A DNA stretch of 55,184 nucleotides from Candidatus Buchananbacteria bacterium. Lineage in GTDB: Bacteria > Patescibacteriota > Patescibacteriia > Buchananbacterales > UBA6539. The notes under the pieces are model-generated. The model saw only the letters and a program-made list of their open reading frames with translations, was not told the origin of the DNA and made no database searches. Both the position numbers and the translations under genes were made by a program. The stretch spans positions 1 to 55,184 of the forward strand of contig JAFGGX010000024.1 in assembly GCA_016930315.1 (NCBI GenBank), given 5' to 3'. Of this stretch, positions 3,735-20,228 are shown one piece after another; the stretch's first letter is position 1; every line of letters starts with the position of its first letter.

Positions 3735-3891
3735 CCGTCGTGGGGGTTTGGGGGCAAGTGTCCGAGCCCAGCCGAACCCTTGGAATCGAAGCGGAAAGGG
3801 TGAGGCGGGTAAAAGACACAAACAATAAATGAGCGCTCGCGAGTCACGAGCCCCCAAAACTCTTTGTCCACTTTCTAGTTATAGAAAGTGG
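3735..3891 (+). ncRNA. unclassified GC-rich structured RNA element, copy 1 of 2
   Basis: Homologous to 12571-12726. Proposed helices: 3747-3755/3850-3858, 3758-3762/3815-3819 and 3771-3781/3796-3806, plus a terminal hairpin at 3868-3891. The helices are kept in copy 2 through compensatory changes. Confidence 0.55.
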
Positions 3892-7227: not shown

Positions 7228-7256
7228 TTGACAAAACTACATAAATATGCTATTAT
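7228..7256 (+). promoter_or_regulatory. sigma70-like promoter of GC-rich unit 1
   Basis: TTGACA-N17-TATTAT with a TGC extended -10. Confidence 0.6.
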
Positions 7257-16931: not shown

Positions 16932-16989
16932 AAATTATAGCGCTATGTTGTTGGTTGCATATTAGCCTATTTATGATAAAATATCAAAT

Positions 16990-17125
16990 AAAAGTGAAGC
17001 CCCCGAGACACGTTGGTCCGGGGGCGTTGATCTTTTTTGGCGGGGCCCACTTTTGGGTCTTTTTGGTTTTGTTGTTTTTTTGCGGACGGCGGGGCCCACT
17101 TTTGTCGCCGTCCTTTTTTCTTTTT
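16990..17125 (+). ncRNA. candidate small RNA unit with two hairpin/T-run modules
   Basis: Upstream TTGCAT-N16-TAAAAT (16955-16982). Hairpin 16999-17025 plus T6. 17-bp direct repeat ggcggggcccacttttg at 17039 and 17088. Hairpin 17084-17113 plus T6. Both flanking genes are on the minus strand. Confidence 0.3.
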
Positions 17126-17183
17126 ACTGTATTTTATATATCATATTCGAAAATATTTGTCAAGTCCTATGGCATTATTATAC

Positions 17184-17213
17184 AAAAAAAATCAGCCAAA
17201 GGCTGATTTTTTT
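17184..17213 (-). terminator. bidirectional terminator after thrS
   Basis: A7-atcagcc-aaa-ggctgat-T7. Confidence 0.7.
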
Positions 17214-17239
17214 ATCTATTTTTAGCTAAATTTGATCTA

Positions 17240-19048
17240 CTAATTTCTAGCCATAATTTCCCGCTTCAATCTTTCGATAAACTTTTCTTTGCTAAACTGT
17301 TCAACTTCTTTCTGGCCTCTGATTCTGACCTGCAAATCATTACTGGCCATTTCTTTTTCACCAATCACCAACATGTAAGGCACTCTCATTGATTCTGCTT
17401 CACGAATTTTCTTACCAACCGTTTCATTACTGTCATCAACTGCCACCCTAATGCCATGGAGGGAAAATTCATTAGCCAATCCTTTAGCAAATTCGACACA
17501 CTCATCTTTAACCGTAACAATTTGCACCTGGACCGGAGCTAACCAGGTTGGGAATGCTCCGCCATAATGTTCTATCAAAAGACCAATAAATCGTTCAAAT
17601 GAACCGAATAACGCCCGATGCAACATATACGGTTGCTCATCCTGGCCTTCATTATTAGTAAATTTAATGTCAAACCGACTAGGTAAATTAAAATCAAACT
17701 GCAAAGTTGAACACTGCCATTCACGGCCAATTGCATCTTTGATTTTAAAATCCAATTTTGGTCCATAAAAAACTGCGCCGCCAATATCTTTTTGAAAAGA
17801 TAAACCTTTTTGCTTAGCCACTTTTTCTAAAACGCCCTCGGTAAATTTCCAACCCTCTTCTGAGCCAGCATATTTATTATTTTCTGGATCACGGACTGAT
17901 AAATAAACATTTATATCTTCGATTTTGAAACCGAAAGACTGGTAAATAAAAAGAATAAAATCAATCACTCGGCCCAATTCATCTTCAACCTGATCAGCCC
18001 GACAAATAATATGGGCATCGTCTTGAGTAAAGCCACGTACCCGGGTTAAACCAGAAAGTTCACCTTTTTTCTCAAACCGATAAACCGTGCCGCACTCAGC
18101 CCAACGCAAAGGAAATTCACGATAAGAATGTAATCGGTTTTTATAAATCCGGAGGTGAAAAGGACAGTTCATCGGTTTTAAAAGATAAGTTTCTGGATCT
18201 TTAACTTTTTCTTTGCCCTGGCTTTCTTTCAGGCTTTGGCTGGCTTCAATCGGTGGATACATACTCTCATTGTAAAACCCCCAATGACCAGAAGTTTCCC
18301 AAAGTGTCTTGTTACCAATATGCGGAGTCCGCACTAAATTATAACCAACTTTAAGGTGCTCATGGTACCAAAAATCTTCGATAATTCGCCATAAAAGGGC
18401 ACCTTTAGGATGCCACAATGGCAAACCCAGGCCAACTACTTCATCAATATGAAATAAATCAAGCTCTTGGCCCAACTTACGATGGTCACGTTTTTTTGCT
18501 TCTTCGAGCATCTTTAAATAGTCATCCAATTCGCTTTGCTTAGTAAAAGCCGTACCATAAATTCGTTGCAACATTTTATTTTTTTCATCGCCTCGCCAAT
18601 AGGCACCGGCTACTCGTAAAAGTTTAACCGCGCCAATTTCTTTCGTTGATTCAACGTGTGGACCAGCACATAAATCAACAAATTTTGCCTTGCCGTCTTT
18701 GTTAACCATTTTATAAAAACTCAACTCCTTTTCTCCTTGGGCTTTCAAATCTTGCGCCATCTCTGACTTATAAGGCTGCTTTTTCGATTTAATATATTTG
18801 ATTGATGCATCGGCATCACGCAAATAATGTTCAATTTTTTGATCCTGCTTAATAATTTCGTGCATTTTGGCTTCAATCTTACCCAAATCATCTTCGGAAA
18901 ATGTTTTACTGCCCAAATCAAAATCGTAGTAAAACCCATCTTCAATCGCCGGACCAATGGCCAGCTTAGCGTCTGGAAAAAATTCCAAAACCGCCTGAGC
19001 TAAAACGTGCGAAGCACTGTGTCTAATTTTTTCTAATTTATTATCCAT
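17240..19048 (-). CDS. thrS: threonine-tRNA ligase (no N-terminal TGS domain)
   Basis: 602 aa. Begins at the editing/SAD domain (IRHSASHVLAQAV), then the class II core and anticodon-binding domain. Confidence 0.95.
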   Translation of the reverse strand: MDNKLEKIRHSASHVLAQAVLEFFPDAKLAIGPAIEDGFYYDFDLGSKTFSEDDLGKIEAKMHEIIKQDQKIEHYLRDADASIKYIKSKKQPYKSEMAQDLKAQGEKELSFYKMVNKDGKAKFVDLCAGPHVESTKEIGAVKLLRVAGAYWRGDEKNKMLQRIYGTAFTKQSELDDYLKMLEEAKKRDHRKLGQELDLFHIDEVVGLGLPLWHPKGALLWRIIEDFWYHEHLKVGYNLVRTPHIGNKTLWETSGHWGFYNESMYPPIEASQSLKESQGKEKVKDPETYLLKPMNCPFHLRIYKNRLHSYREFPLRWAECGTVYRFEKKGELSGLTRVRGFTQDDAHIICRADQVEDELGRVIDFILFIYQSFGFKIEDINVYLSVRDPENNKYAGSEEGWKFTEGVLEKVAKQKGLSFQKDIGGAVFYGPKLDFKIKDAIGREWQCSTLQFDFNLPSRFDIKFTNNEGQDEQPYMLHRALFGSFERFIGLLIEHYGGAFPTWLAPVQVQIVTVKDECVEFAKGLANEFSLHGIRVAVDDSNETVGKKIREAESMRVPYMLVIGEKEMASNDLQVRIRGQKEVEQFSKEKFIERLKREIMARN

Positions 19049-19098
19049 ATATTTTTGGTTAATTTAGTTATTATTTTATATATTATTAATCTTTGTAC

Positions 19099-19127
19099 TT
19101 GACAAAAAATACATAATGTGCTAGCTT
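19099..19127 (+). promoter_or_regulatory. promoter of the GC-rich RNA unit
   Basis: TTGACA-N17-TAGCTT with a TGC extended -10. Confidence 0.55.
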
Positions 19128-19133
19128 AGAATT

Positions 19134-19372
19134 ATCCACTCCGAAAAATAAAAAAGGATGGAGTTGGCCCAAAGGCGGTCCCGGCTGATGGTGTCCAATG
19201 TTAATCTGGGTCTCCTCCTGACATCACCACCCATGTCAGGGCGCTAAAAAATAGTGCCTAGAGGTCGCTACAAGCTTGAAGCGTGAATCAAGCGATGAAC
19301 TTGGTGGCAACCCCGCCCTCGCGGAGCATTCTCGTGGACACCCGTCCGCCTGACTGCTTCCGAGGGCATTTT
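19134..19372 (+). ncRNA. unclassified GC-rich structured RNA (about 240 nt) with its own promoter and terminator
   Basis: No ORF of 60 aa or more. Long-range pairing of 19173-19178/19346-19351 and 19190-19196/19336-19342. Internal hairpins 19217-19224/19233-19240 and 19274-19279/19288-19293. 3' stem 19315-19321/19361-19367 followed by T7. Antisense to both neighbouring genes. Confidence 0.55.
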
Positions 19373-19373
19373 T

Positions 19374-19919
19374 TTATTTTTTATTTTTTAAATATTCATT
19401 CCTTAAAATACCCATAAAAATCATATCATGATAAAAACCGTCACGGTAAACCTGTTCCCTTAATCTACCTTCAATTTTGAATCCAACTTTTTGATATGAC
19501 TTTATTCCTCGAATATTATATCCAAAAACTCGTAAATATACCCGATGCAACCTTAATTTTTTAAAACCGTAATCAACAATTAAGCGACAAGCTTCTGTAC
19601 CACAACCCTGCCCCCAATATTTTTTATCGCCAATAAAAATTCCGAATTCAGCTCTCTTGGATTTTGCACTAATCTTCATTAGACTGCAAACCCCGATATG
19701 CGCTCCATCTACACTATCAATCGAGAACTGAATATGATCTTTCTTTTTTCTCTGCTCTAAAATATATTCACGTTCCTCTTTTAGCGTAGGTGGATTATCA
19801 TAACGATCCAAAAATTTTGTCACTTCCCTGTCTTCAAGCCAACGACAAAAGTTCGGAGCGTCTTTTAAAGAAACCGGCCGTAAAATTACTTTTTTGCCTT
19901 TCAATATAATTCTCTTCAT
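19374..19919 (-). CDS. GNAT family N-acetyltransferase (RimJ/RimL-like)
   Basis: 181 aa. Acetyl-CoA-binding region GQGCGTEA and typical RimJ/L-type length and N-terminus. Confidence 0.85.
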   Translation of the reverse strand: MKRIILKGKKVILRPVSLKDAPNFCRWLEDREVTKFLDRYDNPPTLKEEREYILEQRKKKDHIQFSIDSVDGAHIGVCSLMKISAKSKRAEFGIFIGDKKYWGQGCGTEACRLIVDYGFKKLRLHRVYLRVFGYNIRGIKSYQKVGFKIEGRLREQVYRDGFYHDMIFMGILRNEYLKNKK

Positions 19920-19921
19920 AT

Positions 19922-19978
19922 GTCATTCTGAATTTATTTCAGAATCTCTGGAGGGTCCTGAATCAAGTTCAGAACGAC
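19922..19978. repeat. two-hairpin repeat element, copy 1
   Basis: gtcattctgaatttatttcagaatc plus gtcctgaatcaagttcagaacgac. Homologous to 30654-30710. Confidence 0.65.
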
Positions 19979-20199
19979 CACCAAATAAACAAAAAACCAA
20001 CCAGAAATTATCTGCTTGGGATCCCAACTTTACGTCGGGACGGTTCCACCCAAATTCCCCAATCTGACATCGGGACACTCATTTTATTAAATTGGCTTAA
20101 AGATTTAGCCTGTTTAAACAGGGAATTATTCAAAACACATAGTTGGTAGCTATGTCAACCATCTTTAAACAATATAATAATACCATATTTTAAATAAAC

Positions 20200-20228
20200 T
20201 TGTCAAAAACTAAACATAATGATATAAT
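20200..20228 (+). promoter_or_regulatory. promoter of the GC-rich 66-aa unit
   Basis: TTGTCA-N17-TATAAT. Confidence 0.55.

Follow-up and report, generated by a model that had tools for sequence, protein, structure and literature searches.

Between the genes for a GNAT acetyltransferase and threonyl-tRNA synthetase (thrS) on contig JAFGGX010000024.1 of Candidatus Buchananbacteria bacterium lies a GC-rich tract that is a real and well-delimited sequence feature and a credible orphan small RNA (sRNA) gene. Its sequence features, the strand asymmetry of its fold, its insertion and its operon context can be read directly from the DNA. We tentatively propose, as the best explanation at hand but one that may well prove wrong, that the tract is a lineage-specific gene, transcribed on its own, for a non-coding RNA of about 240 nt; the gene would be carried on a cassette of about 317 nt and specify a cis-antisense sRNA of the GadY type. 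If expressed, it would provide a compact example of a reduced CPR genome modulating an essential synthetase gene, here by means of an RNA gene placed backwards in a T-box operon. The tract is a singleton, and its value is that of a well-defined candidate for transcriptomics, not that of a discovery.

Composition and promoter of the tract

All positions given below without a contig name refer to the window, i.e. the whole stretch of 55,184 nt that was analysed. The tract contains 55-56% GC, compared to a genome mean of 38.5%, and both of its neighbours are encoded on the minus strand: thrS at 17240-19048 (domains tRNA-synt_2b, HGTP_anticodon, and tRNA_SAD) and the GNAT gene at 19374-19919 (Acetyltransf_3, E 2e-27). 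An original prediction made from the sequence had described the tract as a GC-rich structured RNA free of ORFs of 60 aa or more, antisense to both neighbours, and the largest ORF touching it is indeed only 44 aa long. Codon-position GC is flat over the whole element (0.56/0.57/0.60) and tblastx comparison of the element with the relatives' loci and with the genome returned no translated similarity; the tract is therefore not a recognisable gene remnant, and a pseudogene origin was rejected on the empty tblastx result. The prediction had also taken GC-richness as an indicator of non-coding RNA. The tract is GC-rich as described, but in this genome that property is weak evidence by itself, since a crude scan found 111 GC-rich islands lacking ORFs of 90 aa or more.

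The predicted small RNA runs on the plus strand from about A19134 to a U-run at 19369-19375 (approximately 240 nt), as delimited by promoter, fold, and terminator. The promoter is of the sigma-70 type with an extended -10 element and was found where it had been predicted, with TTGACA at 19099-19104, a 17-nt spacer consisting of 14 nt and TGC (19119-19121), and TAGCTT at 19122-19127; the predicted start lies near A19134. This promoter class was calibrated on the 897-kb genome by comparing the counts at 17-nt spacing with the counts at each other spacing. TTGACA-N17-TAnnnT occurs 115 times in the genome versus 3-57 times (mostly 10-25) for every other spacing, and the full signature TTGACA-N14-TGn-TAnnnT occurs 50 times versus 0-7 times at other spacings, where about one would be expected (approximately 50-fold enrichment at 17 nt). 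With its full signature, the site at 19099 is counted among these 50 and thus belongs to a genome-calibrated class; of all members it has the most deviant -10 hexamer (TAGCTT). Such sites are mostly located shortly upstream of ORFs. One is placed some 75 nt ahead of the RNase P RNA gene and another ahead of a T-box leader on contig C41, and two protein-coding GC-rich units in the window (at 7228 and 47889) use the same promoter class. Judged by sequence signature, the tract possesses a promoter of its own, which is a generic attribute of stand-alone sRNA genes.

Folding of the predicted RNA and its terminator

The plus strand of the tract has a minimum free energy (MFE) of -91.5 kcal/mol (z -3.99, 0 of 200 shuffles as good; z -4.35 in a second run). 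For reference, the first 240 nt of the RNase P RNA and the tmRNA of this genome gave z -4.69 and -3.30, respectively, and 44 random windows of the contig gave a mean of -0.46 (sd 1.05, minimum -2.81). The minus strand folds no better than background (z -0.83 to -1.18), and seven G-U pairs are possible on the plus strand only. The plus strand folds as well as the RNase P RNA of the genome, and the folding signal is strand-specific.

Five domains, all on the plus strand, make up the MFE fold. P1 (19135-19162) is a 5' hairpin with an A-rich loop, which holds the ATG of a 29-aa ORF, and P2 (19163-19199; -12.2 kcal/mol alone) is an imperfect hairpin whose strands double as the 5' partner of an alternative long-range helix. 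The P3 domain (19205-19262) comprises the perfect 8-bp hairpin P3a (cctgacat/atgtcagg, 19217-19240, loop CACCACCC) and P3b (19241-19257, loop AAAAA), and the P4 domain (19263-19312) contains the perfect 6-bp hairpin gcttga/tcaagc (19274-19293, loop AGCGUGAA); both perfect hairpins had been noted before and are present. The fifth domain is a 53-nt hairpin at 19315-19367 (-34.4 kcal/mol), based on the previously noted stem gccctcg (19315-19321)/cgagggc (19361-19367) and followed by one A and U7 (19369-19375). It resembles an intrinsic terminator and spans 19315-19375 with the U-run, so that the generic sRNA feature of an intrinsic terminator on the same strand is found in the form of a hairpin plus U7.

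The U-run and the GNAT stop codon share 2 nt. On the minus strand the same hairpin is followed by GGGGUUG, i.e. the terminator U7 exists on the plus strand only. Hairpin-plus-U terminators are used elsewhere in the genome, for instance after thrS (stop at 17240) and at the T-box. Counting against the terminator reading, the U-run sits in a generally T-rich stretch derived from the Lys-rich end of GNAT. A simple terminator scan missed the hairpin at 19315-19367, solely through its 8-nt loop limit.

Insertion into a T-box-GNAT-thrS operon

GNAT is the middle element and thrS the distal gene of a minus-strand operon, which is driven by a promoter (TTGACA-N18 ending in TGG, then TATTAT) with a compact T-box leader at 20014-20205. 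The covariance model match of this leader (20014-20167, minus strand) scores 31.5 bits (E 4e-5), below the Rfam gathering score. The specifier is ACC, followed by A, within the loop CUACCAA; the UGGA of the T-box fits U73, which is plain in two of the three tRNA-Thr genes, and a hairpin-plus-U6 terminator closes the leader shortly before GNAT. The T-box core motif recurs on the strand of thrS, several hundred to about 1400 nt ahead of that gene, in most of the 30 genomes of the order and in metagenome loci, where the motif and thrS are separated by a GNAT ORF of about 185 aa; in some relatives the T-box is located immediately upstream of thrS. The T-box motif together with the intervening GNAT ORF in most relatives indicates, by sequence comparison, that the T-box(Thr)-GNAT-thrS operon is conserved across the order.

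The gap between GNAT and thrS is 325 nt here versus 10-130 nt, or an overlap, in most relatives. The motif AAATTAACCA(A/T)AAATATATGGAT forms the GNAT-stop/thrS-start junction in relatives such as those of loci L067 and L039; here it is found beside thrS only (19057-19065 onward), and GNAT ends in ...EYLKNKK*, using inserted bases. The retained junction motif and the widened gap place the insert at about 19066-19382 (317 nt), between the penultimate codons of GNAT and the ancestral GNAT-stop/thrS-start junction. It begins 33 nt before the -35 box, ends 7 nt beyond the U-run, and thus encompasses a complete transcription unit. ATTT flanks it on both sides (19062-19065 and 19383-19386), which could be a 4-nt target duplication or chance. 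On this comparison the cassette is identified as a lineage-specific insertion in inverted orientation at the GNAT/thrS junction. The original prediction, a structured RNA that stands alone between a promoter and a terminator of its own, is backed by strong intrinsic evidence in the form of the promoter class, the strand-specific fold z-score, the hairpin plus U7, and the lack of codon periodicity; the insertion into the operon, however, had been missed. With the insertion into the T-box(Thr)-GNAT-thrS operon taken into account, the tract would be a cis-antisense element and not an anonymous intergenic RNA.

A thrS-proximal promoter candidate on the minus strand, TTGTCA-N17-TATATA, belongs to a pattern that showed no enrichment over other spacings. 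With no convincing promoter of its own, thrS probably relies on read-through from the T-box promoter across the insert. If thrS is read through the spacer, the sRNA would match the intercistronic portion of the operon mRNA with perfect complementarity. An RNase III gene is present in the genome (C17:1265-1660).

Homologue searches and the possibility of a neutral passenger

No homologue was detected by blastn of the tract in 60 relatives, by covariance model R1 (built on the MFE structure) in 100 relatives and the order, in the thrS-anchored loci of 30 genomes of the order and 9 metagenome contigs, by BLAST against phages and plasmids, or by exact 22-26-mers in genome contigs and viral contigs. 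Covariance model R2, built on the closed structure described in the next section, yielded only a 12-bit hairpin match (E 0.56) in 39 relatives. The GC-rich spacer of one relative (G009, locus L049) was tried and rejected as a homologue: shared 11-mers are at chance level and its own fold gave z -0.9 and -2.1. Within the genome the element has no paralogues and is single-copy, and it shows no relationship to the 157-nt repeats at 3735 and 12571. Among GTDB species representatives the closest ThrRS reaches 58% identity, and among 5.8 billion proteins it reaches 69%. With the nearest ThrRS only 69% identical, the absence of homologues may merely reflect a lack of near relatives. Orphan GC-rich structured non-coding RNAs have been found as GC-rich intergenic islands in AT-rich genomes (PMC8632094), and the tract is like them in being GC-rich, ORF-free, and strongly folding in an AT-rich genome. 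It differs in being a singleton, whereas those classes are defined by many homologues with covariation.

A recently inserted, still GC-rich cassette could look alike without any function. The main rival explanation, which we regard as unlikely but still as a serious one, is accordingly that the tract is a neutral passenger, i.e. a recently acquired or decaying GC-rich transcription unit, such as a former small-gene cassette minus its ORF, which is perhaps transcribed but has no selected function. The single-copy tract unique to this genome, the sharing of its promoter class with the protein-coding GC-rich units at 7228 and 47889, and the abundance of GC-rich islands without long ORFs are all in keeping with this explanation. 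An unselected tract in a genome of 38.5% GC, however, should drift to AT and lose its structure, whereas the tract still has 55% GC and perfect hairpins and equals RNase P RNA in its z-score, and protein remnants were found in no frame.

Alternative pairing and possible attenuation

The original prediction held that the 5' and 3' regions pair over a long range and that this closing helix competes with the 3' stem. The complementarities on which it was based, aggcgg (19173-19178) with ccgcct (19346-19351) and ggtgtcc (19190-19196) with ggacacc (19336-19342), are present when checked pair by pair, and the alternative helix is longer than first noted. In this closed conformation (19167-19367, plus strand), 19167-19202 pairs with 19325-19367 in helices of 4+6+2+13 bp and closes a four-way junction. 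The complementarity exceeds that of shuffled sequences (z -3.6, 2 of 500 as good, in a test chosen after the pairing had been seen) and is specific to one 5' segment (-48 kcal/mol versus -20 to -26 kcal/mol for other 50-nt windows). The helix does compete with the 3' stem, the closed conformation being mutually exclusive with both P2 and the terminator hairpin, but it lies outside the MFE fold: over a 206-nt core the closed form has -71.5 kcal/mol versus -85.1 kcal/mol for the terminator fold, and enforcing the helix costs 12.7-13.6 kcal/mol. The folding model thus gives two mutually exclusive states, with the terminator state thermodynamically favoured.

These two states might be read as a riboswitch-like attenuator, in which a ligand or protein would stabilise a P1-like rod that blocks the terminator hairpin and allows antisense read-through of GNAT and the T-box leader. 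The rod 19167-19202/19325-19367 would be built around a four-way junction of P3, P4, and a small hairpin. We consider this reading improbable. The significant complementarity that peaks at one segment and excludes the terminator speaks for such a device, and so does the classical three-state layout of P2, rod, and terminator, which is formally of the ON type. There is also a precedent for a sense T-box facing an antisense riboswitch: in Clostridium acetobutylicum, an S-box riboswitch-controlled antisense RNA opposes the T-box-controlled ubiG-mccBA operon (PMC2566862). The present locus resembles that one in its convergent promoters facing each other, in the T-box leader on the sense side, and in an antisense structured leader-plus-terminator unit with an alternative pairing that competes with the terminator. 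It differs in that the tract contains no S-box or known aptamer and lies within the operon, separating genes 1 and 2, instead of following it; read-through under regulation would be hypothetical at the tract. The attenuator reading is further weakened by the lack of homologues showing a conserved junction, by the absence of a co-oriented gene and of a second terminator downstream, by the rod state being 13 kcal/mol less stable, and by the choice of the complementarity test after the pairing was seen. It is equally improbable that the tract is a new ligand- or protein-responsive attenuator that gates antisense transcription through GNAT and the Thr T-box, i.e. opposed sense and antisense control; it may also exemplify a wider, undescribed class of promoter-RNA-terminator cassettes that insert at Patescibacteria operon junctions.

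Coding and sense-strand explanations

A still less probable explanation is that the transcript serves as mRNA for a peptide of 29 aa (MELAQRRSRLMVSNVNLGLLLTSPPMSGR), followed by a 3' UTR that is long and structured. The ORF (19158-19247, plus strand, listed among the ORFs of the window) starts with an ATG that follows the predicted transcription start by 24 nt and is preceded by an A-rich leader, and its codon-position GC (0.57/0.47/0.67) resembles that of a GC-rich coding cassette (0.57/0.42/0.66), but thirty codons are too few for a codon-position GC signal. There is no usable Shine-Dalgarno spacing, as the AAGGA motif abuts the ATG directly; the start codon is sequestered in P1, and 120 of the 240 nt would remain untranslated.

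It is marginally less probable again that the tract acts from the minus strand as a sense-strand cis element of the operon mRNA, e.g. as an additional leader, as a structure that aids processing or stability, or as an operator through which ThrRS acts on thrS. Its position directly upstream of thrS in the operon transcript would suit such a role, some relatives carry their T-box in just that place, and a minus-strand loop, GGGUGGUG, recalls the T-box core. The minus strand, however, folds at chance level (z -0.83 to -1.18), neither strand gave a T-box hit at E <=10, the element is absent from relatives having the same operon, and the promoter and the U-run make sense on the plus strand alone.

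Membership in the T-box family (RF00230) was rejected in its own right. Neither strand of 18950-19500 gave a hit at E <=10, nor did the tract appear in a search of the own genome, which did recover the real T-box at 20014-20167 (minus strand). T-box leaders are defined by Stem I with its specifier, the T-box sequence AAnnnGGGUGGNACCGCG, an antiterminator bulge pairing with the tRNA NCCA end, and a position upstream of and co-oriented with the controlled gene. The tract neighbours a genuine Thr T-box, has ACC-containing loops, and carries the word GGUGGCAACC before its terminator, but it lacks a covariance model match and a canonical antiterminator and faces away from any synthetase gene; moreover, its UGGC would call for G73 as the discriminator, but U73 is plainly read in two of the three tRNA-Thr genes. 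The GGUGGCAACC word, the plus-strand ACC loops, and the minus-strand GGGUGGUG loop are regarded as chance resemblances.

Comparison with known RNA families

The original prediction could not match the tract to tmRNA, RNase P RNA, SRP RNA, or 6S RNA by eye, and covariance models bear this out; the Rfam check gave no confident hit to any known family. Rfam 15 searched over the whole window at the gathering threshold returned 0 hits, and the 551-nt region 18950-19500, searched to E 10, returned noise only (E 2.4-7.4, 10-15 bits). A 23S rRNA mimic was rejected, with no LSU match in cmscan and with no further hits of models R1 and R2 in the own genome. A single essential copy per genome is expected for both RNase P RNA and tmRNA, and these copies are located elsewhere, at C6:12438-12867 (155 bits) and C23:9128-9520 (91 bits), respectively; the tract has no similarity to the RNase P RNA gene. 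An SRP RNA would be recognised by the GNAR/AGCA motifs of its helix 8 and by the presence of its partner protein Ffh. Neither SRP RNA model (RF00169, RF01854) matches, and Ffh and FtsY are absent from the genome according to PF00448, PF02978, TIGR00959, and a six-frame motif scan, while SecY was found at 357 bits. As the genome lacks the SRP proteins, the tract is not SRP RNA.

6S RNA is the sole housekeeping class still unlocated in the genome, where RF00013 finds no match, and the strong sigma-70 promoter, the ends that can pair as a 25-bp rod, and the plausible size would suit a highly divergent member of such a class; we nevertheless consider this very improbable, as the MFE fold consists of five hairpins and the closed form of a four-way junction instead of a rod with a central bubble, homologues are missing from the 100 relatives and from every other relative searched, and a recent insertion is unexpected for a housekeeping RNA.

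Comparison with GadY and possible mode of action

GadY of E. coli (gadX-gadW; Rfam RF00122) is a cis-encoded antisense sRNA at an operon junction, and RNase III processes such duplexes. The tract resembles it as a predicted small RNA with its own promoter and terminator, located opposite the intercistronic region of a gene pair, with perfect complementarity to the polycistronic mRNA and with RNase III encoded in the same genome. The architecture, the synteny, and the RNase III gene together give the arrangement typical of GadY, i.e. a position opposite the junction between two co-transcribed genes in a genome that has RNase III. The tract differs from GadY in having no sequence or structural homology to it (no Rfam hit), in being about 240 nt long and far more structured, and in being a recent insertion confined to one genome.

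Transcription of the GadY-type sRNA proposed here, the ends of the RNA, and any regulatory effect are inferences. Its action would most likely be in cis. The sRNA would start 86 nt upstream of the thrS start codon, so that no direct masking of translation initiation is expected. Two routes can be envisaged. Convergent transcription from the strong plus-strand promoter could interfere with polymerases heading for thrS. Alternatively, the sense/antisense duplex could be cut by RNase III, which would uncouple the expression of GNAT from that of thrS in the GadY manner.

The threonine T-box of the GNAT-thrS operon

The GNAT and thrS genes are driven by a compact threonine T-box located at 20014-20205 on the minus strand, which scores 31.5 bits and thus falls far under the Rfam gathering score of 93 bits. 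In Stem I, a simple hairpin that displays the ACC codon in a 7-nt loop (CUACCAA) stands in place of approximately 85 model positions. A clean terminator is present, and the UGGA of the T-box matches U73, the latter being plainly read in two of the three tRNA-Thr genes. The order T-box-GNAT-thrS is kept across the order, and this conserved arrangement indicates that the GNAT gene (Acetyltransf_3) is co-regulated with thrS. The thrS stop codon (17240) is directly followed by a perfect bidirectional terminator (A7-UCAGCC-UUUG-GGCUGA-U8, 17185-17215). Farther downstream comes a GC-rich block (16980-17130) in which GTGGGCCCCGCC words are repeated and whose plus strand bears hairpin/T-run modules.

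The GNAT/thrS junction in relatives

At the same GNAT/thrS junction, a GC-rich element of about 130 nt was found in a locus from another genus (L049, on contig C20 of the relative's genome G009), lying in the spacer roughly 300 nt ahead of thrS. The junction motif AAATTAAC still adjoins thrS in this locus, and its GC-rich element is not homologous to the element inserted in the window. On the antisense strand of the L049 element, a 14-bp closing stem precedes a U-run (fold z -2.1). Insertions may recur at the GNAT/thrS junction. In addition, the word (T)CAGAATGAC(A), found at 19922-19935 of the window, also occurs in four thrS loci of relatives (L043, L044, L052, and L060); within the GNAT/thrS region of several genera it is placed shortly 5' of start codons or junctions, and it may mark where a small repeated element ends.

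SRP components

SecY is present in the source genome, while neither Ffh and FtsY (searched with PF00448, PF02978, TIGR00959, and a motif scan) nor the SRP RNA was found there. PF00448 and RF00169 were also absent from 30 relatives, most of which belong to the same order, and PF02978 was detected in none of 121 Patescibacteria genomes at least 90% complete, the source genome among them; the controls in this PF02978 survey were all positive (14/14). Either the phylum as a whole has truly lost the system, or the prefilter has a blind spot.

Promoters and GC-rich islands of the source genome

The promoter grammar of the source genome is very sharp: a whole-genome count gave 115 TTGACA-N17-TAnnnT sites, compared with mostly 10-25 for each other spacing, and the TGn extended -10 was present in 43% of the N17 sites (50 sites) versus 0-7 sites at other spacings. 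Three full-signature sites, at C14:8971 (minus strand), C23:30926 (plus), and C29:7704 (plus; C denotes contigs of this genome), have no ORF of at least 50 aa within 400 nt and may mark more small RNAs or small ORFs. A crude scan for stretches of at least 80 nt and at least 52% GC outside ORFs of at least 90 aa yielded 111 islands, several of them large, as at C49:27117-27776 (58% GC), C40:34801-35269, C19:113-517, and C23:26040-26235.
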